From assembly GCA_001244265.2 (NCBI GenBank), contig CDLV01000007.1, positions 62,001 through 126,000 on the forward strand: DNA of 64,000 nt. Direction: 5' to 3'. A model generated the notes under the pieces. The model searched no databases, was not told where the DNA came from, and saw only the letters and a list, made by a program, of their open reading frames with translations. This document shows positions 5,829 through 58,926 of the stretch, piece by piece (positions within the stretch are counted from its first letter, which is position 1; each line of letters begins with the position of its first letter). Position numbers and translations under genes: made by a program. Source of the DNA: Microbotryum violaceum. Lineage: Eukaryota.

Positions 5829-7710
<1,882 letters not shown>

Positions 7711-7864
7711 TCTTGCGCGAAAAGAAAGCGATCGGGCGAAGCTGAGAGTCGACGGTCTGTGAGAGGATAGACGCATCGGACTCGATGACGCAAGGCAGCG
7801 CAGGACCGTAGTACCGAAGAATGACATCCGAGGCGAAGAGCGACTTGAGGTGGTCTAACGCAGC

Positions 7865-8450
7865 AGCAGCTGAAGAAGTTTTTCAACGGCGGCCACACGT
7901 ACCCATCTCTCATCTGATTCTTGTTGAACATCGAGACAAAGTTCTCCATCATTTCGGTTTCAATAGCAAGTGAGCTTTTCACCAAACGCTCTCCGCCTTC
8001 GACCTCTTCCATCCAAAGCTCGTACCACCCCGGCCCCCGAGTCAGGCTGGCCCGTCGTCTCGTTCGACTCGCGGAACGAGATGACAAGTGCGAACGGGAG
8101 GGTGCAGAGGTGGCGAACCAGGTCTTGTATGACGGTACGTAAAAAGATAGTAAAGCGACTTTGAGTAGTGTCTTCTTCCTCAATAATCTCGCGGTCCATG
8201 AAGCGCTGAAGGCCAGCTTTAGCGAGTGGTGGAATCGGTGAATTATCGTGAATGTCGTGCGCCACAAAGCCCGTTTCGAGTGCGGCCAGTACTCGTGAAA
8301 TCATATCGTGTACGACCGATGAAGCCCGCACGTCCGGATCGGGATCGGGATAAAGCGGCCGATCTTGTCTTTCTAGTCTTTCCATTCGATCCATACGAGG
8401 CTACTAGTCCTTGGTACAGGGGGTCGACCACTCGTCGGCGGCAACGGGAC
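7865..8450 (-). pseudogene. Relic of a putative PD-(D/E)xK nuclease-family gene, distant paralog of the 45-59 kb cluster
   Basis: SSVVHDMISRVLAALETG..SPIP resembles SICHDSSIADRVLAALSKG..STLP (ORF 45167); downstream GQPD...LAIETE after a frameshift; truncated by the Gypsy fragment. Confidence 0.45.
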
Positions 8451-23679: not shown

Positions 23680-26400
23680 AATGGAAGAAGGCCGCTGCGA
23701 GTTCAGCAAGGACGGCAAGACGTTCGCGATCGCTCAACTAGTCGGATCAAAATACATCTTCCAGGCTCGTCTATCTACTCCCAACTCCACCGAGGCACAA
23801 TCGCTGACGGTCTCCGTACGTTCCAACTCCGCAGATCGCGAAATTTGGCATCAACAATTCGGTCATCTGAATATGCCTTATCTGCTGGAGATGGAACGAA
23901 AGGAGACTGTTATGGGGTTGAGCATCAAGGGAGAAGATTTTGACGTAGCAAAATGACATGGTTGCATGCAAGGAAGAGGTGTTCACGCCAATATCTCGAA
24001 AGGTCCGGCTTCCCGCGCCGATAAACCACTCCACGCCATTCACGCCGATCTCTGTGGTCCGGTGCGCCTCGAGAGTTTCGCCGGCGAGGTCATGGTTTTG
24101 GGCCTGGTCGACGACTACTCGCGCTTCCGATGGAGTTTTCCGATCGGAAAGAAGTCCAGCGTCACTGCTCTCGTCGTTGAGTTCATTCAGCGAGTCGAGC
24201 GAAGTCGCGACTGCAACGTGGCAATATTCCACTCCGACAATGGCGGAGAGTTCGTCAACAACTCGCTGAATGCATTCTTTCGGGAGCGGGGCATCGAGCA
24301 CAGGACCACAGTTCCTTACGCCCACTATCAGAACGGCGTCATTGAACGAGGATGGCGCACTATGTTCGAGACGGTGCGGATCTGGCTCCTGGTCTCAGGG
24401 TTACCTTTGTCCTTCTGGACCTTCGCAGCGAACGCATTTACCTATGTGAGCAATCGTCGATCTACCGCCGCGTTACCCGGTTCGACACCCTTCAAAATGT
24501 ACCACCTTCGCAAGCCTAATGTCTCGCGTATTCGCGTATGGGGTTGCGTGGCGTACGTCCGGATCGCGCCAGAACGTCGTGCCTCGAAGATTGAACCGCC
24601 AAGAGTCAAGGCTCGTTTCATTGGCTACGCGGAGCAGGGATGGATGTTCTGGCGACCCGACACCAACACTGTGTTCGTATCGGATGACGCGAACTTCGAC
24701 GAGAGCTCATTCGAACTTCACCGGGGGGATTCGGACGAGGCTGATCTTCGCGAGGATTCGCCAACTAGTCGAACAAGATTTTGCTCTCGACGGGGCCGGT
24801 CGAGCTCAGGCTCCTGGCACCGACGATCGAGCGACGGCTCCTATTTCTGCCCGTAGAGCGTTGGCTCCGGGTGGCGACAGTCGAGATAACACCCCTCCTC
24901 CGGTCGGTCGAGCAAAGGCTCCTGATCGTGAGTACACTCCCGCTGCGCCTGGTCGCGAGCGCGTTCCAGGCGACGGCGGTAGAGTTCAACACAGCAATGG
25001 TCAAGAGCTTGGTCCCATTGTTCCCACCCGTCGAGCACCGGCTCCTGTTGTTCCCAACGGTCGAGCGCCAGCTCCTGTTGCTGGCGACGGTGAAACACCG
25101 CCTCCCGTCGCCTCCCGTCGCCCGTCTCCTTTTCTTGACGACGATGCTGACAACCACCCACCTGATCCGAATCAGATTCCTGATGGCTACGAACCGGTGG
25201 TACCTACGACGGAGCGGACCTCCGAGTTAGCCGAACGCTGGGGTGCTCTTGCAGGGTCCCGCCGTCGAGGGTGGGCAGAGCAGCAAGCAATGTTCCTCGA
25301 CATGGGGACCATCTTGGGAGACGTGATTCCCCTGAACGAGCTTCCAGAATGGGAACAAGTCCTCAACGTCGTCGTCAACCTCGAAGAGTGCAACGGTTGG
25401 ACCAACCTTTCGTCGATCGTTCAAGGATCCACCGAGGGCATCAGCGGAATCGAGGAACTTGAAGCGTACCAGGTCTGGACCGGAAGTCCCGACGAGCCGA
25501 CATACAAGCAGGCGATGGCCGGCGAGGATCGCGAGGATTGGTCCATTTCCCTCATGACCGAGTACTCGATTCTGAACGGCATGAACACATGGGACAAAGA
25601 GGCCACCGATCCGCCGCCAGAGGTTCGAGCAATCCCAACGAAGGTCGTCCTCACCCGCAAGCGGAATGACAAAGGTGACATCATCAAGTACAAGGCAAGG
25701 ATCGTCGCACGGGGAGATCTCCAGAACCATCACGGGGAAACATTCCCACCGACAGCTCGAATCGCCTCCATCCGGATGATCAACGTCATAGCTCACGTCA
25801 AAGGGTATCGGCGGCTTCAGTTCGACGTCAACAGCGCATACCTTCACGGCCACATCACCGAACCACTATGGATCAAGCTGCCGGACGGTTCCACCCATCG
25901 ACTGCGCAAATCCCTGTATGGTCTCAAGCAGTCGGGTCGTGAGTGGAACAAGGCCTTGCATGCTGCGCTCGTCGATCGCGGCTTCAAGCGAATGGAGGAG
26001 GATTTTGGGGTCTACCGAAGGGTTCGCAACATCGGGGGCGTCGATCGCACGACTCCTTGGCCATCTACGTTGACGACGGTCTTCTCGCCGGGGACAACGA
26101 TCTCGAAGGGTTCCTCAGCGAGTTCGACCAACAATTCAAACTCAAGCGAGGCGAGGTCGAGTTATTCCTGGGGATGAAGATTGCCACCGACGACGCATCG
26201 GGGATCATGACCATTGACCACTTCCACCAGATCGAGACCATCCTGAACAATCACGGGTTTGCGAACGCTTCCGCGGTGGCAACCCCAACCTCCGACAGCG
26301 ATCAGCACTCAGATGGAGGTACTGCTCATCTCAAGCTCAACTATCGCCAGGTTGTTGGTGAGCTCCTCTGGGTCTCAGGATGCACAAGGCCCCCGATATC
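23680..26400 (+). mobile_element. Truncated Ty1/Copia pol (GAG-pre-integrase, integrase, RT), no LTRs found
   Basis: WHQQFGHLN; HADLCGP, VDDYSRF, SDNGGEF, QNGVIER; KYKARIVARG, QFDVNSAYLHG, LRKSLYGLKQSGREW, IYVDD; stops before RNase H. Confidence 0.95.
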
Positions 26401-43100: not shown

Positions 43101-45166
43101 GGAGCGGGACGAAGAGGATGGTCGAGCAGCGGGGTGGGCGCTTGAGCAGGCGTATGCTGATGCCGCCGAAACCGGATCCCGAAACCGGATCGGGCCGAAA
43201 AGACTACCGGCGCGTGCCCACACTTGGTGAGAGCCTTGCGACTCGATCGTCGATTCCTGTCTCGGCGTTTGCACACGAGGGTTTCTCTTTCAAGCGCTGA
43301 AAGCAGGCAGGTTGTGAGGTTTTTTTGTCCTTCCACTCGCTAACACCGACAACTACAGGAAGAGTTTCCTGGGGTAAGAGGTCTATTAAAGGGTCACGAT
43401 CATTGATCTCCGACAAGCTTCGCCGTTGCAGCTCGCAACCGATCGGGAGGCCTGGATGAAATTCCAGCGTTGCTCCTCCAAAGTCTATGAGCGCCCTCGA
43501 GTGCCCCCCGCTGCCTGGGCAGTCGGCGAGAGGCCGTTGAATTTTCTGCTCGTCGGCCTCGTCGCCATCAAACCTTGGCTTGTTTCCTGGGTCTGGAACC
43601 AAAGATGTCCCTCTCTCAAAACCTTAGCTTTTCAGCGCTTACGTTCGTAGACTCCGGTCGAGATTGTCCAGAAGTGAGGTCAACAGGTCCCACGAAGGAG
43701 GGCGATCCTGGCCAGCCTGGGACCAGTTGCACTTCCAATTCGGTCATTCGGCGACTCTTGAGTCCGCCGTGAGGGCTCGTTGCAGCATGTATAACCCTTT
43801 ACCTCTTTTAGCTCCCTGTATGACTAGTTTTCATTCACTCTACACCTCCCCTGAAGTAATCAGATAAACATCGGGGTTTCACTTATAGTTCCTGTAGGAG
43901 GGCATTGCGACGGACTCAAAGGCTGCACTCGCCATGATAAGATCGACGAGGAAGGTCGTCGGCATCCCGACGATCCCGTCACGTGCGTTCGTACCGATGC
44001 CCTTTGACCAAAACCCCAAGCATCACTTTACTCCCGGTAGAGGTGACATATACACTCTTAATGATAGGCGCCTTGATGACGTGGATGGTGATAAGGTCAG
44101 TGTCTCCTACATGGCTTCAATATCCAACCCGACTGCCTCGTCAAGGGCCCCGCCGAGAGGAGCGATTTCGCCGATTGCGAAGGAGACTTCATGAGGCTGA
44201 GTTTTCAAGGACTCCCGGCTGCTGTGATGAAGCATTGAAGCTAAGACTTAAGGTGCCGTCCCAATGATTTGTTCCGAGCTGTTTTCGACTGTACCGAAAC
44301 CTTCGTTTCCTGCGCATTGCAAGTGAGCGGCGGTTCGAACGGATAGTGCGGTGGTGCACGTGATCAGCGATCTAAAGTATCCTCGCCTTGATATTTTCTT
44401 GTTCTCTGATCAAGTCGTCACCCGTCGTGTGCTGAACTTTTCTACGTCCAGGAATATATTAGGTCCCGGAAGCTTCCGAGTTGATGACCAGATCGAGAGG
44501 GCGCAGTGGTCATCGCACGTAAGTTGCGGCCCGCGCTGAACAATTGTGGGGGTGGCATGTGGGGGATTTGCGACGCGTCACGCAAGCGGACGCCGCGCAG
44601 AGCGGAGTCTGACCCCTCGGTCTCACCGTTATACTCGTGACCTCTCGACGCGTACCCAAAACCACTTGGCGTAAACCAGACAAGCCCCCCTTTTTTGGCG
44701 CTAAAGGTGTGAAGACCAAATCAGCGAGCGACTCCAGGCGAGCCTCCAAGATACGCCCACACTCCAATGTCGGCTTTCGCAAGCACTGCAGCCGGGAGTC
44801 TCGGAGCTCCCTCCGGGGAGTCCGACTCGCGGCTTGGGCAATCTTCCCAAAGAGCTGATAAAGGAAGTCAGCCCGGTGTTGAAGCAGAAAGAAAAAGAAA
44901 GGACGAGTACCATCGAATTATGAACACCTGCTGCACTAGGTCTACCCTTCCTGCAGCATGCGTTGCATGCCTCGCTCACCCCGGCCGCTGGTATTGATGG
45001 CTCCGAAAGCATGGATTCGAGACGCTCAAGCTCAAGTTCGGCACACCCGCTGGCGACAGTCTAGTCCGGCGACCTGCCCTGCCACAGGCGGCGGCTCGTC
45101 GCGGCGTCGCTCAAGTCCATTGCCGAGCTGCCAGATCAAGCCCATCCAAGGCCCAAACCCGAATCT

Positions 45167-47592
45167 ATGGCTTGGAACATCGATGCGCCCTCGACCTACA
45201 GAGACCTGCTGCACTGCGTCTACCCCTTCCTCGGCTTGCGTTCGGTGCCTTGCTGCAACTCCGCCAATGGCACCGACAGCACGAACAAGCTCACTTTCGG
45301 CACTCAGCGTGGGCCAGGCGAGCACTTCCTGGGCCATCCCCTGACCAGCATTTGCCATGACTCGTCTATCGCCGACCGAGTTCTTGCAGCGCTCAGCAAA
45401 GGACTAGCAGGCGCTGACAAGCTCGAGTCGACGCTACCCTTCTTGACCCGCGGCCTCCTCGAGAATGATCTTCAACCCAAGCCCTGGATCCATGAAAAAA
45501 CCGGTGCACTCATCGCCTGGTCTAGCATGTTGCATGCCATTCCTACTGAAGTACTCGAAGAATGCCATGATCAGCCTGTCTGCTTTGCAATCCGCTCCTC
45601 GTGGGGCCCACGCGCGAGACTTTCGGATTCAACGTCTTATGCCAAGAACGCATCGGTCTTCAAGCGGGATCGCGCGGATGACCGCGAGAAGGGTGGCCGG
45701 AATGGGATCCCGAATTCGTATGAGGAGATCAAAACCGTAGCATTCCATATACGCATGGCTGACGAGCTCGAGGCTTGCTACTTTGGAGAGGACGGACTCG
45801 AATCCTCGGATCCGCTCGACCTTCGACTGATGACGGTCACTGGCGAGCCGCGCGAACTCCAGGGTGGTTGTGCACTTGCGGCAATGGTAGGAAATCATTC
45901 GCAGAACCAATCAGGATGCTCGCGATAGGTATTGCATTGCTGACCCTCATTTCCTGCCCACCATCTCCAGCTTGCTCTTCATATCCAGCTCACGAAACAC
46001 GCTCGATTCGGCATCGTCTTTGGGCCGCCGTACTTTGTTCTGGTCGAGTTGGGTGCGTCGCCCTGTGACGCCCTTAGGATGGGACCCTGGCGTGCCTAAT
46101 GGTGTTCTTCCGGCTGATTCGACGTTCTTCGTCTTCCTCAGTTGTCGTGGACGGAAGTTCGCACCTGCTCGTCGGCGACTTGCATTCGATCGTACTCGAT
46201 CCCGAGGAACCACGTGCTACGGTGAAGCCGTTCCTCGCGATTCTTCTCGCGCTGTTCATGGATCACTGTGACGACTACCACATCGAGGGACCAGTTCCGC
46301 ACATACTCGATCAGATCGCGGTCTTTTCTCGATCGCTCGATCGTACCTCTCTGGCCCACGATAAAGGGCCCAGGTCGGAACAGCCATCGGATCTCCCTGC
46401 CTCTTCTCAGTCGTTCTGTCGATTTGGCGAGTCGATCGTCACGGCCAATCACTTTCCCGGCCGAGCTGTGAGTGCATCGCTGGTTTCATACCCTCGCGGC
46501 AGGTCAGCTGCCCTAGGCTGGGTCTCTGGCGCTGACCGACTGCGCTTGGATACCTGGACGCCGGTCTAGATCATCTGCGATGCAAACGCGCTCCCAAACT
46601 CTCGCATGCTAGCCAGTCCGATCGAGTTGGAAGCTGAGATGGCGCCTTCTTCGGACACGCCGGCCTCGTCTTCACCGTCAGCTCTCCCATCGGCCAGAAA
46701 GAAGATTTGCCTCGACTCGGATGCGAGCCACCGGTCCAAGCTAGCGACGACTCTACCCAGGGCAATACAGCTCGTATTCAATCGCTCGTCGATGGCACGG
46801 GCCGAGTACTGCCCTGGTCCTCTACTCGACCTCGACTCGACTCCCAGCCTACGACTCGATCTGGTGCGTCGAGTTGGCCATGGGGCGACGAGCGTCGTTT
46901 GGGAGGCCGAGTGGGTGACGCGTGTCGCAGCCAGTTGGCAACCGGAGATCTCGTGCGCCGAGGAGGGGCCTTCGCCTAGCCCACGCACTGGGACGCCACT
47001 CGCGACGACACCAGCGACAACTCCAATATCAACACCAGTGACAACGCCAGCATCTATGTGGGATCCATCGAACACTCCTTACACGTCGCCCGCCTCGAGC
47101 ACGAATTCAGCTGTTGACGGTTCGAGCCCTCCACGGCGGGAGTCGGACAGGGAAAGCTCATTGCCAAGGTGGTGCCGTCCGATTTTGTTGGCTCGGTCGC
47201 AAAGGAATACTTTGTGTACACCTCGATCGTTCCTTTGCTGTCTCCTAAAGCGCGAGGGTACTTCCCGGCTTTCTATGGCCTCTACCGCAGTGGGAGCGAT
47301 GGACACGCCTACGTCTTGGTGATGGAGGATACTGGCTCGGCGATCACGGAGGAACAGCTGGAGTCAGACATCGAGCTCAAAGCCCAGGTCGAGTGAGTCG
47401 GATCAGTCTCCGCGCGATTCGCTTGGGATGTAACTGATGTCTGCCCACTCGTGCACTTGAGCGTACAGTGCCGCGTTGACGCTCATTGCCGACGAGGGTC
47501 TCGTTCACGGGGATCAAGGCGCACGGAATGTGTTGCTTCGACCCGACGGTCGGATCTGTCTCATCGACTGGGGTGAGGCGCAATTGAGATGA
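45167..47592 (+). CDS. Copy A: putative nuclease-fold + minimal protein kinase fusion (5 exons, one frameshift near 47130)
   Basis: Kinase motifs VGHGATSVVW, LIAK, KEYFVY, FPAFYGLY, LVMED, HGDQGARNVLL, LIDWG then stop; N-half LSD...EEIKT...LALHI..RFGIVFGPPYFVL. Introns GT-AG. Confidence 0.75.
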
Positions 47593-47826
47593 ACACATCG
47601 TCTGGACGCTTGTACTTTTGTGATCTTGTAGCTGCTTCAAAACAACGTCCGCAATAAGATTTGACTGGGGTCTCTTCGTGACCAGCTCACTTTTCCGGGC
47701 GCGAAGGTCCTGTGACGTTGAGCCGGTTGTGGACTTGTAGCAAGTCTGGGTTCGTCTATGTCGAAAGCATACACGTGATGTTATTCGAATCGTCAAAGCG
47801 ATGCATAACAAGACACATGCGGCCAA

Positions 47827-48156
47827 TGTCGTTTGATATGTGTCTGTGCCTGTGGTATCTGCGCGGATGCGCGTGCGTTTAGTCATTAGTCACTTTGGTA
47901 TTGTAGTTTGATCTGTTTAAGTTAGGGAGCGCGCGGGGCTTTCTTCCAGCGCGGCTGTTTACTCTTGATAGCTTTCTCATCACTCGCTCTACATTGTGGT
48001 CCTGACTTCTCGGCGTCGTGCACCCTCACCTATCGGAAGGTTAGTTACTGGAATACTTATCATCACTCGCTCTACATTGTGGTCCTGACTTCTCGGCGTC
48101 GTGCACCCTCACCTATCGGAAGGCTTTACTTCCGCGCTCGCATCTTTTCTGCGTTA
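47827..48156 (+). repeat. 5' LTR (330 bp, TG...TA) with internal ~63-bp direct repeat
   Basis: Matches the 3' LTR except one G in a G run; CATCACTCGCTCTAC...TATCGGAAGG occurs twice. Confidence 0.95.
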
Positions 48157-48168
48157 GGTTATGAGTCC
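48157..48168 (+). promoter_or_regulatory. Primer-binding site, copia/Ty5-type (internal region of initiator tRNA-Met)
   Basis: GGTTATGAGTCC abuts the LTR, resembling the GGTTATG.GCC half-tRNAiMet PBS; contains the gag ATG. Confidence 0.75.
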
Positions 48169-51100
48169 AACGGGTAGCGTAGGAGGCCCGGGTCAGCAAA
48201 GCGATTCACATCGCACCACCAACATCGGAATGGACACCGAAACACACTCTACCGAAACGAGTGAACGTGGATTACATGTCCCAATTCTTCGGGCAGCCAA
48301 CTATATGGATTGGCGTCGACGTCTGATTGGTCGTCTTGGGTCCAAGGATTTGCATCTTTGCGCCTCGAGGCGGATGAGCCCGGCTGCGGAGGCTGTTCTC
48401 CAAGCCGCAATCGACGATCGATCGCGTGGCTTCCACTCGCCCCTCGAGCGGCTCGACTTCGCAGCTATGGACGCGAAGATCGCCAAGGAGCTAAAGAAGG
48501 AGGTTCGAACTCAAGCTGAAATCATTCAGTTTCTCGATGAGGCCAATCTTCGCTTGGTCAGGGGTTGTTACACGTCTTACGACATACTCGACTCGCTGAA
48601 CACGTTCTACCTCGGAACGATGAGCGCTCAGATTTCCGCCTTGACGACTGAGCTCTATTCGCGCAAGTTCTCGTCTGGCGATCGTGGGCAGTTACTGCAC
48701 CACTTGATCACCATTCATGGAATTTTGCAAGATCTTGAGGCGTGTGGCTCTGGGATGCCACCAGCTCAGCAATCGACGCTGATGCTCGATTCCGTCTTCG
48801 ACTCGCAACACGAGTCGTTCACAAGCTCACTGCGTCGACCTCTGGCTCTACCTTCGGAGATTGTTTCCGAGGCACGGTCTTACCAGTTCAAAGTCTCGCT
48901 GGCAAGTCGAATCAATGGACTATCTGCCACGACTTCCGGACGCGCCATTGCTCAGTCGCCTGTTCCTGCGCTCGTTGCGCAAGGCGAATCGCAAAAGGGA
49001 CCGCGTCGCAAAAGAGGTCACAAGAAAGGCAATCGCGACGGTCAAGGAAATCGCCGTCCTCCCGATTCTACCTGTCATGCGTGTGGAGCGAAGGGACACT
49101 GGTCTAGCGATGCAGTGTGCCCGGAAAACCGTTCAAAGTCATCTGCAGCCCCCGCGTTGGTTGCAATGAACTCCCATTCCCTTTACCTTGCTGGTTCTTC
49201 CTCGAGAGCTCCCGATACCGACTCCGTTTGGATCGCGGATACCGGAGCTGGTCACCACTTTGTTGGCGATCGCTCGCTGCTCTCGGATTTTAAGGAATCC
49301 CCGATTCAAGTCCAGATGGCCGACAACTCGCTTGGTCAAGCCATTGGATACGGGCGAATGTCTGTTAAGACTTCGCAAGGTCACCTTCTCAAATTCAAGG
49401 AGATGTACTACCTCCCTGGATCGAGGTATGGTCTAATCTCAATGTCGTCGCTCCGCGCTGGAGGCGCGAAATTGGTTTATGGCCATGGGGGAGATACTCA
49501 ACAGGTTTGGCTTGACGGCTCTCTCGTCGCCGAAACTGTCAAGACGAAGGCCAAACAACCAAGTTACGTCTTCGATTTTGAGATTGTCTCTCCACCCTCG
49601 CCTGTGCTCGTCGCATCTACCCGTGCTTCCGTTGGAGCTTCGCTCATGGAATGGCATCGGAACTTCGGACACATGGCACCCTCTTCAATTCTTCAACTCG
49701 TCAAATCCAAGGCTATCGTTGGAATTCGTTTACTCGACAAGAAGATTGAAGACTGTGAGCCGTGCATTATCGCGAAGGCGCGCGCGGGCTCTCACAATCA
49801 TGTCAGTCGAAAAACCCGAACTTGTTCTTCAACGGGTTTCGATTGATCTGGGATTCGTCAACGATGACGATACCAATGGACGATCCATCTACATGGTTAT
49901 CGTCGACCAACTTTCAACCTATAAGTGGGCTTTTCCACTTGGTTCGAAGTCGGCATCTGAAGTCCTCGAGGTCTGGCGCGGCTTTCAAGCGCAGGTCGAG
50001 AGGCAGTCCGGTCAGAAGATCAAGTTTGTTCGTTCTGACAATGGAGGCGAGTTCGTCAACCAACTCCTTGGCGGCGAATTCAAGGCACTTGGCATCACCA
50101 TGAACTGGCTGCACGCTACACGCCGCAGCAGAATGGTCAAGTGGAGCGCGCGAACGGCTCTCTCTTCGCGCTCGTCCGTGCCATGCTCAAGGACTCCGGA
50201 CTTCCCAAGAAGTATTGGTTCTACGCATTGGAAGCGGCTGTTTTCGTTTCCAACCGCGGTCCTCACCCACATCTCAAGGGCAAGACTGCGTTCGAGGTCT
50301 TCTTTGGCAAGCAACCCGACGTTTCGCATCTTCGCGCGTTCGGATCTACTGCCTACGTTCTCGTCCCCAAGGCGATTCGTAAGAAGCTCGATGACCATAC
50401 TGTCAAGGGTACTTTCCTCGGCTATTCGGGGGAGTACAACTACAAGGTTCGCGTCGAACACGGTCGGTCTTTCAAGATCGTCGCCTCTTCCGATGTCACC
50501 TTCTCCGACAAGGCTCCTTCGATTGCGGACTCGGCTGTCGAGCCTCGCATCTACGAAGTTGAACCTCTACAGGAACACGAGTTAGTACACCAACTACCGT
50601 TTCCTGGCTTGGAGCAGATTCCGGCTTTACGGCCTGCTCCCCTACCCGAGGCAGGTTTGGCTTTTCAGCCTGCGCTCTTTCCCGAGGCAGAAGTTCCGGC
50701 TTTACGGCCTGCGCTCGTACCCGAGCTTGGTCCGGCTTTTCGGCCAGCTCCCGCTCCTCTTCCTCGTTTCCAACATATGGACGATGACGACGTTGCTCCT
50801 CCTCCTTTCCCGGCTGTCGGTCCATTGGCCGAAGACGCTGAAGTTGAAGAGGACCCGATCGATCATCGACGCGAGGAAGCTGTTGAGGCTATCGGCAGTG
50901 ACGACGACGACAGCCCTGCGGAACACGATCAACCATTACCTCCTGAGGATGGTTACGAGTATCGACCTTACCGTGTCGGCCGCAACCCTGGTGCGCTCGA
51001 GAACGTCGATGCAGGTAACATTTTACCGACTCGCCTGCGTGCTCAGCATCACACAGGCGCCCTTCGTGTCGTGTCTACTCGCTCGGTCTACCGTCATCCA

Positions 51101-53014
51101 CCAGAGCTCATTGCTATGGTTTCGTCTCGTCACCCCCGCTTCCCAAGAATTTTGTGGAGGCGATGGCCTCTCCTGAGGCCAAACACTGGATGGCCGCTTC
51201 TGAAAAGGAGTTGGGCTCATTCAAATTGCACAAGGTCTTCAAGCTTACGAGGCTACCCACCGGGGCTCGCGCCCTGGGCTATCGTTGGGTGTTCACTCGC
51301 AAAGAAGACGCTGAAGGCAATATCATCAGCTACAAGGCTCGGCTCGTTATCCAAGGCTTCGCTCAACGACTTGGGATCAACTACAACGAGACGTTTGCTC
51401 CTGTCTCGTCGATCACGACGATTTTGTTTCTCATTGCCATCTCTGCCGCTCTCGACTCGTCCTCGAACAGTTTGACTATGATTCTGCGTTTCTCAACGGG
51501 ATCATGGAGGAGGATGTCTACATGAAGATTCCTGAAGGATGGACTGGTGGCTCTCAGCCCGGTCACGCTCTCAAGCTCCTTAAATCTATGTACGGCACCA
51601 AGCAGGCTCCTCGGCAATGGAACGCGGCTCTCCACAAGCTGATGACGGATCGCGGCTATACGCGCTCCAATGTCGATGCTTGTCTGTACTTCAAGTATCA
51701 TGGCAAGTCGTTCGCAATCATCACTTTGTACGTTGATGATGGGCTTGCTGCATCGAACAACCAGGCTTTTCTGGACTCCGAGATTTCGGCTTTCGATGCG
51801 GTCTACAAGCTCAAGCGACTTGGCCCGGTCAAGACGTTCCTCGGTCTCGAGTTTATTCGTACCAAGGATTTCATCTTTGTCCACCAGTCTAAGTACATTA
51901 GAGGCTTACTCGAGCACTACACGTTCGAAAGCAAGTCGAAGAAGCCGGTCGCGACTCCAATGGAGGATCGCGTCGTTTCGTCTTCTACTGCTCCGTTCGC
52001 CAACATTCTCGTTTATCAATCGGCTGTGGGAGCGCTTCAATATGCTGCGCAACGTGTTCGTCCCGATATCGCGACTGCTGTTCGTGCGGTGGCGAAGTGC
52101 GTGGCTGCTCCAACCGAAGGAGACTGGATCTGCGTCAAGCGAATCTTTCGCTATCTTTCTGACACCGTCGACTATGGGCTACTCTACCGCGTAGGCGGTT
52201 CTACCAAATTCGAGGTGTACAGTGACGCGTCGTTTGGTTGCGATCACGACAACGGAAGATCTGTGGGAGCGTATGTCGTCATTATGGCTGGCGCTGCCAT
52301 TTCCTGGAAGTCGAAGCAACAAACGATGGTCGCTTCTTCTACAGCAGAGTCTGAGACTCTGGCTGCTTCAACCGCAGCAGAGAAAGCTATCAAGAGTAAA
52401 CAGCCGCGCTGGAAGAAAGCCCGCGCGCTCCCTAACTTAAACAGATCAAACTACAATACCAAAGTGACTAATGACTAAACGCACGCGCATCCGCACAGAT
52501 ACCACAGGCACAGACACATATCAAACGACACTCCCCATGCCAAGGTAGCCAGCGAGACCATCCCGAGTCCCTCGCGATGCGTAGCGAACTTGAGTTTGGG
52601 CAGGGGTTTCGTGAAAATGTCGGCCGTGTTCAGATTGGTCGGACAGTAGCGGAGATCGGTCTTCGCAACCTGGCGTCCGAACTTCGCATCAATCAAGGTC
52701 AATCTACTGTTCTGCACGAGGACAACCAACCTTGCATCGATTTGGCGAAGAATCCCGGAGCTCGAGGTCGTACACGCCATTGGAATGTGCATCATTTCTA
52801 TCTACGCGAACGAATCGAGGTTGGCGATATCGATCTCCGCTACTGTCCGACCAATCTGAACACGGCCGACATTTTCACGAAACCCCTGCCCAAACTCAAG
52901 TTCGCTACGCATCGCGAGGGACTCGGGATGGTCTCGCTGGCTACCTTGGCATGGGGAGTGTCGTTTGATATGTGTCTGTGCCTGTGGTATCTGCGCGGAT
53001 GCGCGTGCGTTTAG
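48161..53014 (+). pseudogene. Copia gag-pol, about 4 frameshifts plus an inverted insertion in RNase H
   Basis: CHACGAKGHW knuckle, WIADTGA protease, [56 protein letters not shown]. Confidence 0.9.
52380..52658 (-). repeat. 279-bp inverted copy of 52831-53109 (pol end, PPT, start of 3' LTR)
   Basis: Reverse-complement match with one mismatch seen; interrupts AASTAA|GLRNLASEL. Confidence 0.95.
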
Positions 53015-53287
53015 TCATTAGTCACTTTGGTATTGTAGTTTGATCTGTTTAAGTTAGGGAGCGCGCGGGCTTTCTTCCAGCGCGGCTGTTTACTCTTGAT
53101 AGCTTTCTCATCACTCGCTCTACATTGTGGTCCTGACTTCTCGGCGTCGTGCACCCTCACCTATCGGAAGGTTAGTTACTGGAATACTTATCATCACTCG
53201 CTCTACATTGTGGTCCTGACTTCTCGGCGTCGTGCACCCTCACCTATCGGAAGGCTTTACTTCCGCGCTCGCATCTTTTCTGCGTTA
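52959..53287 (+). repeat. 3' LTR (329 bp)
   Basis: Preceded by GGGGAG, followed by TSD GCCAA. Confidence 0.95.
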
Positions 53288-53779
53288 GCCAAGAGCCTTT
53301 ACTTCGCAGCATCGTCGTTGGTCCGCTCGGCGCTTGAGCATTAAAGCCGAGGTCTACCTCCACTTGTCTGGGGCCGCGACCGATACATTCTACTGATCTT
53401 CCACAGGAGGGGATTACCGTGCCCCATGAAGTCGAGCCATAAGCATACCACCAGCGAAAAGAAAGCGTGGGAGCGGCGAACAATACGCCATTCGACTCCT
53501 TTTTTCGGTATTTGGAGCCTTGGCACTGGCGCCCCTGTCGAAAGTGTTTCGTGACCGCAGGGGGGAAGCTGACGCGCGCGGGCGAGGAACATCGCGCTGC
53601 GGTAATGCGCAATCGACGATCACCTCGCACTGGCAGTGCGCCTCGCCCTTGCTTCGCTTCATTTCGTCTGGTATCTGCTACACAGTAAGTACGTCCGAAA
53701 AACACAGCTCTTCTCACCGTCGTTCTTTCGCCTGATTACTCCGAGTCGGCATGTCCTTGCTCATTTCCACTCAGACGAG

Positions 53780-54945
53780 ATGGACATCGAGACCGCATTG
53801 AGCTTCGTTCCCATGACCTACCGCGGCCTGTTGGGCTTCGTGCCCCCCGCGCTCGTAACCATCCTCAAGACTACGTCGAAGGTGACAAAAGACTACGTTC
53901 AACAGACCAACGTCAGGGAGGAAGAGGTCCCATTGGCACCGTTCGAGTCTGCCCGTCATGACGGCTCAAATACGGCGAGGGCTCTTGGCGCCCTGCACCG
54001 AGGCCTGACCCAGGCCGGCAGGCTTGAATCCCCAGTGCCTCACCTCGTCCGCGCGAATTTAGCTGCAGCAATCAAAGTTCCATGTTTCATCCACCAAGAG
54101 AAAAGCATGGTTGGCCTTTGGACCTGGTTCGTCGTAACCATCGCTCGACCGCTCGTCCAGGACCTTTTTGGCGATAACTCGGACCCCGTCGGCACGGATA
54201 TCTTCCCTTGCGAGGTCAAAGTCGGCCAAGTCGGGATGGCTATGCCTGCCTGTATCGCGATCGGAGATCGAAGAGCGCCAAAAATCCCGCCAATGGTTAC
54301 GACATAGACGCCTTCGAGATCTGTACCTCTTGTCCGGTCGAGCCAAAAACATTTGTACAACCGCCAAGCACAGCTGGCGTTTTTGGCTCGACCGGACAAG
54401 AGGTACAGATCTCGAAGGCGTCTGTGTCGTAACCATTGGCGGGCTTTTTGGCGCTCTTCGATCTCCGATCGCGATACATGCAGGCATAGCCATCCCCGAC
54501 TTGGCCGACTTTGACCTCGCAAGGGAAGATGTCCGTGCCGTGTCGCGGCCGCTGTGCTTCGCCACCACGCGGAGAGTCTTCAACAGCCAGAACTCGACGT
54601 CCGCCATCTTGGCGAGCCCGGTACCGAGCTCAAACTCGTAAGCGGTGCATCCACTTTTGCCAAAGTAAGTGAAATGCTGTCTCGGACATCACAAGCCTTC
54701 CTCGTGTATTTCCCCTGGGCTGAGGATGGATGGCCACACTTACCATCTTGGCGAGCATATGAGGTTTGCTCCCGGACCCGATGAACTGGCTCGCCGACGC
54801 AAAGGCATGATTTTAGGTGGCCCTTACTTCGTGCTGACGCAGCTACGTAAGTGCAGTTTTAAGCCCTGCAGCCTGAGAGTCTGACGTCCGGGTCAAGCGC
54901 TTCACAGTGGTCGACAACGGCAAATCGCATGTCTCTTGCACGGGG
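53780..54945 (+). pseudogene. Copy X1: kinase-less nuclease-domain paralog disrupted by a fold-back insertion
   Basis: MTYRGLL, HDGSNTARALGALHRGL..LESPVP, GDGY...PVEPKT, LDVRHL..GASTFAK|gtaagt, GMILGGPYFVLTQL|gtaagt, VDNGKSH; motifs and two intron positions match copy A. Confidence 0.7.
54190..54540. repeat. Inverted repeat, ~160-bp arms (54190-54350 / 54379-54540), 28-nt loop
   Basis: Reverse-complement arms with about 5 differences seen. Confidence 0.95.
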
Positions 54946-55009
54946 GTTTACACATATGTCTCTTGACTCTGCTCATCCCAACCCCCCTTCCTGCCCACCC
55001 TTTTCCTCA

Positions 55010-55870
55010 CTACACATAGTTTAGTATGAAGTGAGGCCGGCCAGAACTGTGCCCGGCCTCTACCTCGGCGAGCCAGTTCTTGAGGTCCAGGAGCGAACTC
55101 ACTCTTTCGGCTGAATACTCGGCGGATCCTCACTCGTTTTGTCTAATCAGACGAGAAGGACTCCGAAAGAGAAGGAGGTACCGTCTTTCCCATTCAAGTC
55201 GGGACACCACGACGGCTCGAACACGAAGAGGGCGCTTGCAGCTTTGCAGCAAGGCTTGACCGCGGCGGGCAAGCTCTCTTCAAGGTTACCCGACCTCGTG
55301 CGCTGAAATCTGGCGAATAAGCTCAGATCTCCATACCTGATTACCAAGGAAGAAATCATGGTCGAGCTTTTGAGTTGGTTCATCGGCACGATCGCCCAAC
55401 CGCTGGTCCAAGACCTCATCTACCGCAATCAGACCGCATCGACGAAGAACGAACCGGCTGATGGGTGGGCAGGGGGTCATGACCCTGCGGTTGAGTGATC
55501 GTGCCAACGAACAACCCAAGAGCTCGCCCGTGCTCTTTTCCTTGGCAACCATATACGGAAATCTGAGCTTATCAGCGAGAGTCCAGCGCACGAGGTCGGG
55601 TAACCTCGAGGAGAGCTTGCCGGCCCTGGTCGAGCCCTCGCCGCACGTCGATGCAAGGGCCCTCTCCGTGTTTGAGTCGTTGTGGTGTGCCGAATTGAAC
55701 GGGGTAGGCGGCACCACCTCCGTGTCCTTTGGATCGATTTGCTGTGTGTAGTGGGCTCTGCAGCAGAGAGGTGGTCTTTGCGATCGTGATAAGCGCGGGG
55801 CAGAGGAAGCCCAATAGCTCGTAGTAGGTGCAGTGGTGGGGAAGAGGGTCCACTCACTTTCAAAGTCCAT
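55010..55870 (-). pseudogene. Copy X3: frameshifted paralog (55870-55480 plus exon-2 relic ~55110-55010), interrupted by X2
   Basis: MDFES..TYYELLGFLCPALITIAKTT..HHNDSNTERALA..GKLSSRLPDLVRW; FAPGPQELARR matches X1 FAPGPDELARR. Confidence 0.7.
55147..55430 (+). pseudogene. Copy X2: internal fragment of the same family
   Basis: HHDGSNTKRALAALQQGLTAAGKLSSRLPDLVR*NLANKL...WFIGTIAQPLVQDL. Confidence 0.75.
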
Positions 55871-56582
55871 CTCGACTGAGCGGGGACGTACCAGGTTGTG
55901 AATATAGGAGGAGATGAAGCGAAGCAAAACGAGGCGCACCGCGGGTGCGAAGTGGTCGTTGGTCGCGCATGACCACAGCGCGATGTTTTTCTCCCGCGCG
56001 CGTCAGCTTCCCGCGCTTGCGGTGACGAACCGCTTTCGACAGGGGCGACAGCGCCCAGGCTCGAATCACCGAGAAAAGGAGTCGGTATTCTTCGCCCCTC
56101 CCCCCCTTTGTCTTCTCGTGTCTTCTTTAACCTCATGTCTCGACCTCGTGGGCCACACCGTTGCGATGATCTTCTTCGGTGCACTGACCATTAGTAGAAT
56201 GTACCGGTTGCGGCCCTTGATAACTGGAGGTGGGCCTAAATCCCGAGGCTCCAACGCCGAGCGGACCACCGGGGATCGACGATGCCGCGGAGTGAGCGTT
56301 CTTGGCCGCAAGCGTTTTTTTGTATGCATCGCTTTGACAGTATAGCATTCGATGTTCGGCATTTTTGCATAGGCGTATTTGCATATCTTTGCATAAACGT
56401 ATTCCAAAATTAGGTACAAGGCCACAACCGGTTCGATGTCACAGGAGCTTCGCGCCCGACGCAAGTAACGTTGAAACGCAAGTAACGTTGAACTCGTCAC
56501 GGCCCCTTAGTCAAATTTTATCGCTAAGATTGTTTTGAAGCAGCTACAACATCACGAAATTACAAGCGTCCGGGTGATGTGT

Positions 56583-58926
56583 TCATCTCAATAGCGCCTC
56601 ACCCAGTCGAAGAGACAGATTCGACCGTCAGGCCGAAGCAGCACATTCCTTGCGCCTTCGTCCCCGTGAACGAGACCTTCGTCGGCAATGAGCTTCAACG
56701 CGGCACTGTAAGCGCAAGAAGGTATGAGTTGCATCTCAAGAGTATCGGTCGTCACTCGGAGACAGTTTTGGACTCACTCGACCTTGGCCTTCAACTCGCT
56801 GTTCAATTGTAACTGCTCGGGCGAAATCGTCGAACCGGCATCTTCCATCACCAAAACATAGGCGTGGCCCTCTGTCCCACTTTGGTACAGGCCATAGAAA
56901 GCGGGAAAGTACTGACGCACTTTAAGGGATAGTAAAGGAACGATCGAGGTGTAGACATAGTATTCTTTCGCAATCGAGGGGGCAAAGTCCTCTGAGACGA
57001 TTTTGGCGACGAGCTTACCTTGCCCAACTCCGACACATGAAGACCTTCTCGTCACATGCGGTCTTCCACTTGCGACCCCCTTTCGCACCCACTGGACCTG
57101 CCATACTGTGCTGCTTGCTCCTCGACCGATCCGACGAACGAGATCAAGTCGCGAGCCTGAGGGAGGAGCGAACTTCACCTTGAACTCTCGCTTGTGCAGC
57201 ACGAAGGTTGATGCCCTTTTGAACAGCTGCTGTAGCTCTGGAGATAAAGCCTCACTGACGAGGTTTGACCGACGGCTCGCCTCCGCGTCAAGACGAATCT
57301 TCTTCTTGGCTCGTAGTGTCTCGGAAAGGGATGAGGAAGCGGTCTCGTATTCAAGTCGGAGCTCGATTGGCGAGGCCGCCATTCGAGAGTCGGGTATTAT
57401 CTTCGCATCACAAATTATCTGAAGTCGAAGCCGATGCAAGCGCAAGTGGGATAAGTACCCCGATCCAACCGAGCGCAGTCAAGCTCATTGCGTACTGACC
57501 GTTTGGCCAGGAGCCAGATGGAGGGTAGCAGTCACTCCGTTGCACGTGAAAAGCTTTGAGGGTCCATCTGGCTCGCTCCGGGCGTTTTTCGATTCGGCGT
57601 TCTTTACTGAATCGTCATCACCTGGGAGGCTCGCATGGCAAGCTCCAGGCGAAAGGCGGAAGGGGTCGTCGCTGCTGTTCGAGCTCACGATTGGGGATGA
57701 TCGAGCGCTGAGGCGTTGTCGGCTTCGGGCGCCGAATCAAGCGATCGGGAATACCTCACGACGTTATTGAGTACATGTTGAGGGGGGAGGCGATGCGATA
57801 GTCAACGTGATGGTTCATCAGAAGGGCGAGGAAGATCGCGTTGAAGGGTTTAACTGTTGCGCGTGGTTCGTCGGGATCGAAAACGATGGAGTGCAAATCA
57901 CCGACGAGCAAGTGCGACTGTCGGTCAACGACGACTGAAGATGAGGATTGTAGTGGAGTTTGGTCAGCGGTCCAAGGTTGTAAAACTCCTCCCATTCCCA
58001 GAGACAGACCTGAGGCTACACACCTGACTCCACGAGCACAAAGTACGGCGGAGCAAAGATGACGCCGAAGCGAGCTCGTTTTGCAAGGCGGATGTGCAGA
58101 GCGAGCTGCGAGAGTCAATCGTGCAGTTCAGCGGTTGGAGGAGCTCAAAAGACGTGATTGAAAACGTGCACACCTTTGCAGCGATTGTACGACCACCACG
58201 AAGATCATGCAATCGGCCCGTCGAGGCCACGAGTCGGATGTCGAGCAGCTCGGAACCGAGACCTGCGGACGTACGATCGCCGTTCGAGCTGGACGGTGAG
58301 TCGAAATAGCACGCCTCGAGGTCGTGGGCCATGCGTCCATGGAATGCAACCGTGGTTAGAATTTCATTCGTTTTGATCTCATTCTGTAGCTCCGCGTCGT
58401 AGCATCTGACGATAGAAAGGCTTTGGAGGCTCTGCAGCTCCGAGTCGGGGCCTAGATCTGTCGTCGTCAGAGACGACTCGGACCATCTGACTTGCAAGTC
58501 ATCTTGCTCCAGGTCTTCAATCGTGTACTTTGCAATTGATTGCTTGATACATTTGAGGGCATATGAAGCCGTCTTTGGGCTGTCGAACTTGGAAAAGTTA
58601 AAGACGCGTTGGGCCTCGAGGTCCATTTGTGTGGTTTTGGGAAGCGGAGTGTGAAGCATTCCGGACTTGATGAGACCCTGCAGCTGGCAAAGGCCAGCCA
58701 GGGCCCTATCGACGATCGACGAGTCGCGGTAGACGCTAGTCAAAGATTCTTCGGAAAGCACGTACTCGCCCGGACTACGACGCTGGCCAAATTCTGCCAC
58801 TCCTTGACCGGTCTCGGAGGTGAAGGGGACGGCAGCACGCCAGGACTATCTAACCGACTATCACAATGGGTAAGCGTTGTCGAGCAGATCAGCATATGTG
58901 ATGGGCGGACTGCTGGTCAGGACCAT
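56583..58926 (-). pseudogene. Copy B: full-length paralog of copy A with early in-frame stops and a terminal frameshift
   Basis: PITYADLL..YPL followed by TGA TAG; DSSIVDRALAGL, TVAFHGRMAHDLEACYF, IGRGASSTVW, LVAK, FPAFYGLY, HGDEGARNVLL, FDW; same exon layout as A. Confidence 0.78.

Follow-up and report, generated by a model that had tools for sequence, protein, structure and literature searches.

Positions 45167 to 58926 of a stretch of Microbotryum violaceum DNA (contig CDLV01000007.1; the whole stretch of 64,000 nucleotides is hereafter called the window) harbor a cluster of genes and gene relics in which an N-terminal module is joined to a C-terminal kinase. The original prediction, made from the letters of the stretch, had seen in them nuclease-kinase fusions of Crinkler/Spok-like architecture. 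In the portions of PMC6660238 considered here, SPOK3 is described as a coiled coil followed by an unknown domain, a PD-(D/E)xK domain with K240 and a QxxxY motif, a Cys/His cluster, and a kinase of ~160 residues (~539-700, catalytic residue D667) that is closer to the Kdo-type eukaryotic-like kinases (ELKs); frameshifts near the 3' end are tolerated, and kinase-dead Spok3 is toxic (Vogan et al. 2019). To the extent of that description, the Microbotryum family is similar: a single polypeptide comprises an orphan N-terminal region, then a predicted alpha/beta region, and a C-terminal ELK-type kinase of ~160 residues, the C-terminal tail is variable, the genes are multi-copy and accompanied by pseudogenes among transposons, and the products would be intracellular. 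It differs from Spok in that the PD-(D/E)xK lysine is not conserved, that QxxxY occurs in 4 of the 19 family proteins and at unrelated positions, and that the pattern C-x3-C-x13-C-x5-H-x7-H, even as a loosened regular expression, is found in 0/19 (no C-x3-C exists at all). In the stretch upstream of the kinase, no more than a single Cys and a single His come near to invariance. Nor does a long helix that might correspond to the coiled coil of SPOK3 appear in the first 45 residues of either of two models, both of low confidence there. Moreover, the host belongs to the Basidiomycota rather than to the Ascomycota, and no drive phenotype is known for it.

The Crinkler effectors of the restriction endonuclease-kinase type, as presented in part of PMC5289972 (after Zhang et al. 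2016), share with the Microbotryum family the succession of a proposed nuclease-like module and a kinase, as well as an N-terminal part apparently swapped by recombination next to a conserved C-terminal part. Unlike them, the family shows the LxLFLAK and HVLVxxP header motifs in none of its 19 proteins, no restriction endonuclease match, and no sign of host delivery. Of the likeness that had been claimed for the locus, the analogy with the Spok architecture is still a fair lead; neither the header motifs of Crinklers nor the Cys/His cluster of Spok is present. The kinase domain of CRN8 is a full-length protein kinase, whereas that of the Microbotryum proteins stops after DFG. Like Bud32/PRPK, Kdo kinase, WaaY/WaaP, RIO, and APH, the latter has an H-(G/N/D)-D-x4-N loop and no activation-loop signature; unlike the Bud32/Kdo/WaaY kinases, it ends 50-60 residues earlier and is fused to an orphan N-terminal part of ~400 residues. 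Small phage and bacterial effector kinases are a further term of comparison, HopBF1 being a very small kinase of this sort; since kinase domains of ~170-200 residues exist, a core of 165 residues is not unheard of, but those kinases stand alone and, as far as seen here, share with the Microbotryum fusion only the general kinase fold.

The locus is, in our judgment, reasonably probably part of a Microbotryum-restricted, clustered, and mosaic family, in which an orphan N-module is joined to a minimal ELK kinase, and which is represented here by a decaying palindromic cluster with a young copia element. Over their C-terminal ~165 residues, the proteins form a kinase N-lobe followed by a catalytic loop, both of the Bud32/Kdo/WaaY (ELK) type, with the Gly loop, the Lys, the Glu, the H-x-D...N, and the DWG present. 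A Foldseek search with the model of the family protein P0013, whose kinase part has a predicted local distance difference test (pLDDT) score of 60-80, disclosed at least 500 matches in the PDB at E <= 0.001; the 46 matches listed are all kinases, mostly aligned over ~170 columns at ~4 A. Among the Pfam families, APH ranks first in 12 of 18 members (lowest E 6.5e-05), and the Bud32, Kdo-kinase, and LanKC models match weakly the stretch from the hinge to the DFG in 6/6 proteins (21.7 bits against a cut-off of 125 for Bud32, 19.6 against 142 for Kdo kinase). The comparison with hhalign joined the family to E. coli WaaY (probability 70 %, E 4e-05), no match being found with E. coli WaaP. In an Atlas feature search, residues 470-661 reached a score of 0.98 to small fungal kinases of the Kdo/APH type; the same search listed a 171-residue Uroviricota cluster.

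The catalytic residues are kept throughout, i.e., K, E, and H in 16/16 sequences, D in 15/16, N in 17/17, and the Asp of DWG in 16/17, the 17th alignment row being P0001, which is out of frame over the catalytic region. The claim that the kinase stops right after DWG was borne out both by a transcript contig of one of the copies (copy A, see below) and by 16/16 family proteins with a C-terminus: the tail after the Trp of DW(G) measures 4-27 residues in all of them, 4-9 in 15/16, and 6 or fewer in 12/16. Because all 16 members end there, the stop is a conserved trait of the family rather than an artefact produced by the insertion of copia. Beyond the point at which the family ends, WaaY continues for 51 residues and the Bud32 model for ~60 positions; C-lobe helices after the DFG are absent.

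The analysis of the N-module gave a different picture. Its invariant or near-invariant residues are, in P0013 numbering, R56, E60, D73, R79, D219, R221, and R253, followed by P261, Y262, E267, H276, D/E281, and D318-Y319; a conserved hairpin, AIICD...M.A..EL, lies between this module and the kinase. The core predicted for the module in the P0013 model consists of a helix (234-249) and three strands (252-259, 262-271, and 274-283), and then helices; in this model the helix-strand order of 234-313 would be compatible with a restriction-endonuclease core, short of a proof. The PD-(D/E)xK nuclease that had been proposed for this module found no support in any sequence comparison made. Scans of Pfam, NCBIfam, and PADLOC, in which PF27653 SPOK2_N lay outside the scanned Pfam models, gave no family match to the N-module; a profile search of the PDB sequences returned essentially kinases, with a few non-kinase rows at E >= 0.5 and no nuclease; and hhalign against the E. 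coli PD-(D/E)xK enzymes HsdR (EcoKI) and Mrr, a crude test, gave probabilities of 0.1 and 0.4 %. The lysine of the supposed D...E-x-K motif occurs in 1/16 sequences, namely in copy A itself, and is replaced by N in the sister-species ortholog; among the conserved family columns, no other invariant acid-x-Lys is present.

AlphaFold combined with Foldseek, which had been proposed as a check, recovered the kinase fold of the C-terminus and left the N-module with weak models, the mean pLDDT being 30 for P0005 (10 sequences) and 51 for P0013 (18 sequences). Kinases alone are among the matches listed for the whole P0013 model against the PDB and BFVD; in this comparison, made with the whole protein, the kinase matches swamp any signal of the N-module. 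The prediction of a complex between the N-part (60-405) and the kinase part (455-624) scored 0.01, which is not evidence either way. Values of pLDDT below 50 at 148-181 and 191-237 coincide with the variable middle of the N-module, a segment that, in the model, is probably partly disordered. The absence of a signal peptide, noticed at the outset, was supported in 18 of 19 proteins, where a crude regular expression revealed no hydrophobic run in the first 35 residues, the exception being P0020. In subfamily 1, the invariant basic motif PAKKIRLD looks like a nuclear localization signal by analogy with PAAKRVKLD of c-Myc.

As to the range of the family, phmmer, run with exon 1 of copy A on 1.84 billion representative sequences, returned 7 matches, six of them from Microbotryum and one bacterial; the latter (P0003, a repetitive surface protein of 7341 residues) was discarded as spurious, as the family profile fails to match it. 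Word-indexed searches with the exon, the family alignment, and the kinase part alone returned Microbotryum proteins only at E <= 0.001. On the basis of these searches, the family appears so far only in Microbotryum, with 19 proteins from four species (M. lychnidis-dioicae, M. silenes-dioicae, M. saponariae, and M. intermedium), each of which possesses full-length open genes. An intact protein measures 590-745 residues, and two subfamilies can be recognized, their mutual identity being ~30%. Judging from locus tags and common contigs, members are often neighbors elsewhere too: C010g06093 lies beside C010g06094, BQ2448_1947, _1952, and _1965 share one contig, and MVLG_01742 and MVLG_01757 another. 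In the literature searched, six of the locus tags led to no paper naming these genes, nor was one found describing such a family in connection with Spok in Basidiomycota or meiotic drive in Microbotryum.

A mosaic pattern of identity can be observed along these genes. Copy A and its M. silenes-dioicae ortholog P0002 are 61, 53, 85, and 100% identical in successive segments, whereas other ortholog pairs share 96-99% in the first (N-terminal) segment; the tandem neighbors P0010 and P0011 share 49% in the variable segment and 94% in the middle; and, in run X20, stretches without differences alternate with one containing 19 differences in 329 nucleotides (nt). This pattern points to the exchange of N-modules between paralogs. 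As a separate case, the annotated protein P0020 (M. intermedium BQ2448_1965) combines a copia reverse transcriptase/RNase H with the C-terminal half of one of the family proteins, beginning at ...IICDAE... and including the kinase; this suggests that copia elements have repeatedly landed in or beside genes of the family within Microbotryum.

In the window, the profile built on 10 family proteins was compared with all 1920 stop-to-stop open reading frames (ORFs). It found copy A at 45191-47589 of the forward strand, in several pieces (E 1e-73 to 7e-23), and copy B at 58794-56603 of the reverse strand (E 1e-36 to 2e-19); matches to three relics, X1, X2, and X3, lie between them. The paralogy of the pieces is thus real and well above chance, and the five that had been recognized from the letters (A, X1, X2, X3, and B) do belong to one family, together with a sixth, at 8068-8328. 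The shared motifs that had been listed fared unequally: TY..LL, HD.S...R.L..L..GL, and G...G/A.PYFVL recur in the family, while D...E.KT (with its K in 1/16) does not, and G....AK reads AAM in copy A. The introns at common positions in A and B were confirmed by the spliced contig for the former and by the mapping of P0012 for the latter. Three features had been missed, i.e., a deletion in A, the stop codons in B, and the divergence of X1-X3, which are of another type.

Copy A (45167..47592, forward strand) is MVLG_06224 of Microbotryum lychnidis-dioicae, the species from which the window comes; the MVLG_06224 protein of strain p1A1 Lamole, P0001, is 100% identical to it over exon 1 and maps exactly onto the exons 45167-45886, 45971-46052, 46142-46467, 46570-47392, and 47469-47592. 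The gene is transcribed and correctly spliced: its four GT..AG introns are all removed in one contig of 2543 nt from run X13, with 0 differences to the window. No RNA label is recorded for this run, whose RNA nature was judged from the splicing, the contig being spliced as RNA would be. The contig is unspliced from 47469 to its end at 47693 and spans the stop codon at 47590-47592; therefore, no further exon follows the DWG in A. Such an exon had been considered for the stretch GTGAGG...TGTAG and was rejected, as the frames of A and B differ there, it is lost in the sister species (DWD), and the contig crosses it unspliced. The 3' untranslated region of A (47593..47739, forward strand) is contained in part in the transcript contig and is homologous to the sequence downstream of B.

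Copy A lacks one nucleotide behind 47126, where the relative sequenced in run X20 carries an additional C; its frame changes at 47127-47130 relative to the ortholog P0002, which is in frame. Runs X5, X11, and X13, from three studies, match the window at the deletion, X5 being possibly the source strain. The ORF starting at the ATG consequently ends at 47320-47322, before the kinase Lys, and the annotated MVLG_06224 finishes with 60-odd out-of-frame residues. Since the kinase codons (47130-47592) are still open in their own frame, with every catalytic residue kept, the lesion looks recent; no slippery heptamer for programmed frameshifting is seen in the sequence at the deletion. In run X20, 45000-45868 is left uncovered, a gap that says nothing about presence or absence. 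The share of words sampled from A is 0.68 in runs X17-X19 and 0.00 in runs X21-X24; strain differences are possible, and these shares are no evidence of a presence/absence polymorphism.

Copy B (56588..58926, reverse strand) has its ATG at 58926-58924 and in-frame stops at 58863-58861, 58860-58858, and 58848-58846 (codons 22, 23, and 27). From the internal Met at 58659, it corresponds residue for residue to MVLG_07136 (P0012), provided that one extra base is allowed at ~57783 and one at ~57694. Two deletions of 1 nt, a near-identical second copy, or an assembly error at both places could each account for this. The exact mapping of P0012 onto B places four introns at the same protein positions as in A. 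The sequence ends in ...FDWVRRY*; the loss of 1 nt in a GGG run turns ...DWGEAxxR* into ...DWVRRY*, replacing the Gly of DWG, and YRDSS stands where other members have HDSS. MVLG_07136 is recorded on a contig of 16.7 kb, and may be a near-identical second copy or lie on a redundant contig. The premature stops (TGA, TAG, and TAG) all fall inside 18 nt (58863-58846); they might stem from C-to-T hypermutation of a kind resembling repeat-induced point mutation, which has been reported for Microbotryum. A match of DUF7638 on exon 1 of B (E 0.13) was treated as noise, not being seen in other members.

Between the two copies lies a Ty1/copia long terminal repeat (LTR) retrotransposon (47827..53288, forward strand), which was delimited by its LTRs and whose gag-integrase-reverse transcriptase ORFs were named by eye; it begins 235 nt 3' of the stop codon of A. 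The LTRs (47827-48157 and 52959-53288, ~331 nt each) are identical save for one 1-nt indel, and the insertion must, because of this, be very young. The element contains an odd internal inverted duplication (52380-52671 versus 52818-53109, 98%), which covers a portion of the LTR together with the terminal part of pol. The left arm of an inner inverted repeat (53289..53668, upstream of X1; partner 56305-55908, 72%) starts exactly where the element ends, and the 3' flank of A (47585-47739) pairs with 56590-56415 of B (74%). Without the copia element, the interval reads as a palindrome, old and imperfect, of the form A -> X1 ... X3 <- B, which the very young element now divides.

The relics inside this palindrome are X1 (53816..54160, forward strand; family profile E 2.6e-08, profile positions 3-120), X2 (55145..55300, forward strand; E 1.7e-08, positions 31-82), and X3 (55532..55720, reverse strand; a weak E of 0.013, positions 40-101). 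X1 retains the N-terminal ~120 residues, and its identity with full-length members does not exceed 33%; its reading frame is interrupted by a near-perfect palindrome of 351 nt (54190..54540, 91-98% self-match). X2, whose reading continues in another frame at 55307-55420, forms with X3 an inverted pair, the self-palindrome 55173-55719 (75%). Together with the 8-kb piece, X1-X3 resemble one another, share the endpoint ...PLVQDL, and are only 22-45% identical to any full-length member; for this reason they are considered old relics of a third, diverged type. The strong divergence rules them out as recent fragments of A or B, and at such identities no recent donor for the exchange of N-modules is seen among them. 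The palindrome 54190-54540 directly follows X1. A direct repeat of 67 nt (44910..44976, forward strand), 278 nt upstream of 45188-45254 and 72% identical to it, might be a remnant of the first coding bases of A, although a chance match is possible.

No copy at this locus encodes the whole two-domain protein. The idea of a paralogous cluster embedded in transposable elements and subject to birth and death was upheld by the gene map. Because the family is confined to one genus, occurs in clusters, swaps its N-modules, and often yields pseudogenes, it probably serves in some genetic conflict and not in housekeeping. In the intact members, a still-constrained phosphotransferase half that would bind ATP might be coupled to a variable N-module, probably enzymatic or target-binding; the proteins would act inside the cell, and those of subfamily 1 would probably be nuclear. 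A number of observations weigh against this reconstruction. A kinase deprived of everything after the DFG may be inactive, and all the kinase family models miss their curated cut-offs except APH, whose 23.2 bits are reached exactly (23.2) by P0002 alone, i.e., by 1/18 proteins. The N-module has no recognized fold or family, and the words enzymatic or target-binding derive from its conserved charged residues only; the nuclear localization comes from the likeness of the basic motif to the c-Myc signal. Part of the apparent fast evolution of the N-module may reflect relaxed constraint instead of conflict, which is conceivable because the variable middle coincides with the low-confidence regions of the model. 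Lastly, the two frame slips of B could be assembly errors, since one assembly is being compared with one annotated protein and the differences are of single bases, the first of them in a run of C.

If these genes are not more than a lineage-specific kinase fusion, they would still contain one of the shortest conserved kinase cores known, with the catalytic residues kept across two subfamilies, and they would illustrate how paralogs exchange modules in a model fungus for sex-chromosome-like evolution. A more specific reading, which we regard as unlikely, although it deserves to be taken seriously, makes of them Spok-like toxin-antidote genes, in which one protein would comprise a nuclease-like nuclear toxin and a mini-kinase neutralizing it in cis or in trans, with selfish spread, subsequent decay, and possibly distorted tetrads. 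The domain order parallels that of SPOK3, the kinase is of ELK type and ends just after the DFG, and subfamily 1 carries the motif resembling a nuclear localization signal; the family is multi-copy, associated with transposable elements, and rich in pseudogenes. The order helix-strand-strand-strand-helix at 234-313 of P0013, modeled with confidence 60-76, is that of the restriction-endonuclease core, and invariant acidic, basic, and His residues are located within it. In the Atlas (language-model) feature search with the N-part, 4 of 30 matches came from clusters of PF27653 SPOK2_N (best rank 19, score 0.91, 174 shared features); however, 26 of the 30 entries are unnamed clusters and come first in the list, and the method, uncalibrated for protein parts, shows neither membership nor toxicity.

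Against such a system speak the (D/E)-x-K, which is not conserved (Lys in 1/16), the QxxxY and the Cys/His cluster, neither of which is conserved in the 19/19 proteins, and the sequence searches, none of which gave a nuclease match. In the portions of PMC6660238 considered, moreover, the relatives of Spok are reported from Ascomycota only, and a kinase-dead Spok allele is toxic, while A is transcribed without its kinase; the N-module of A would for this reason have to be harmless, covered in trans, or untranslated. Stated in its strongest form, namely that the family is the first of Spok-like toxin-antidotes in Basidiomycota, with an exchangeable N-terminal killing or targeting module checked by a minimal ELK kinase, and that A has recently lost its antidote half and is transcribed nonetheless, the proposal seems to us more doubtful still. 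If the Spok-like reading were true, single-gene toxin-antidote drivers would extend to Basidiomycota, with a testable candidate in an organism with ordered tetrads, and both segregation distortion and the haplo-lethal strains with mating-type bias could be approached at the molecular level. Strains of this kind have long been described in Microbotryum.

To a third possibility, compatible with either of the foregoing explanations, we assign a small probability. The kinase could be circularly permuted, its missing C-lobe (APE, alphaF to alphaH) having been relocated to the front, where it would form the first ~150 residues, with the alpha/beta module inserted; the N-terminal pattern would read RRxPGE, 12 residues, a D-x-S...R helix, and two helices. 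The fact that 15/16 proteins end 4-9 residues after the DWG and nonetheless conserve their catalytic residues speaks in its favor. From PGE to Asp, 12 residues intervene (E60 to D73 in P0013), which is close to the spacing from APE to the Asp of alphaF in protein kinases. Within the N-module, confidence is highest at residues 66-110 (pLDDT 62-79), and the model predicts helices at 76-91, 101-112, and 123-146 with loops of ~10 residues, but no sequence search aligned the N-terminus with a kinase C-lobe.

That the locus, or the family altogether, is non-functional debris of pseudogenes and fragments scattered by transposons and inverted duplication can be given just as little credit: A, B, and X1-X3 are all disrupted, a copia element lies inside the locus, and P0020 is a chimera of a copia reverse transcriptase and half a family member, but conservation across the two subfamilies, which are only ~30% identical, extends to the catalytic residues of the kinase and to ~40 columns of the N-module, full-length open genes exist in four species, and A is transcribed and accurately spliced.

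Outside the cluster, the sixth relic (8068..8328, reverse strand; family profile E 5.5e-05) is N-terminal and of the X type. It adjoins reverse-transcriptase-like ORFs at 5829-7193 (forward strand) and 7400-7882 (reverse strand), which share long identical peptide stretches in opposite orientation and may represent another inverted duplication of a transposable element. The rest of the window harbors ordinary genes, such as a Sec3-like gene, an alpha/beta hydrolase, and an aspartyl protease, and a second copia-type reverse transcriptase ORF is located at 24450-26177 (RVT_2, E 5.7e-28), distant from the cluster.

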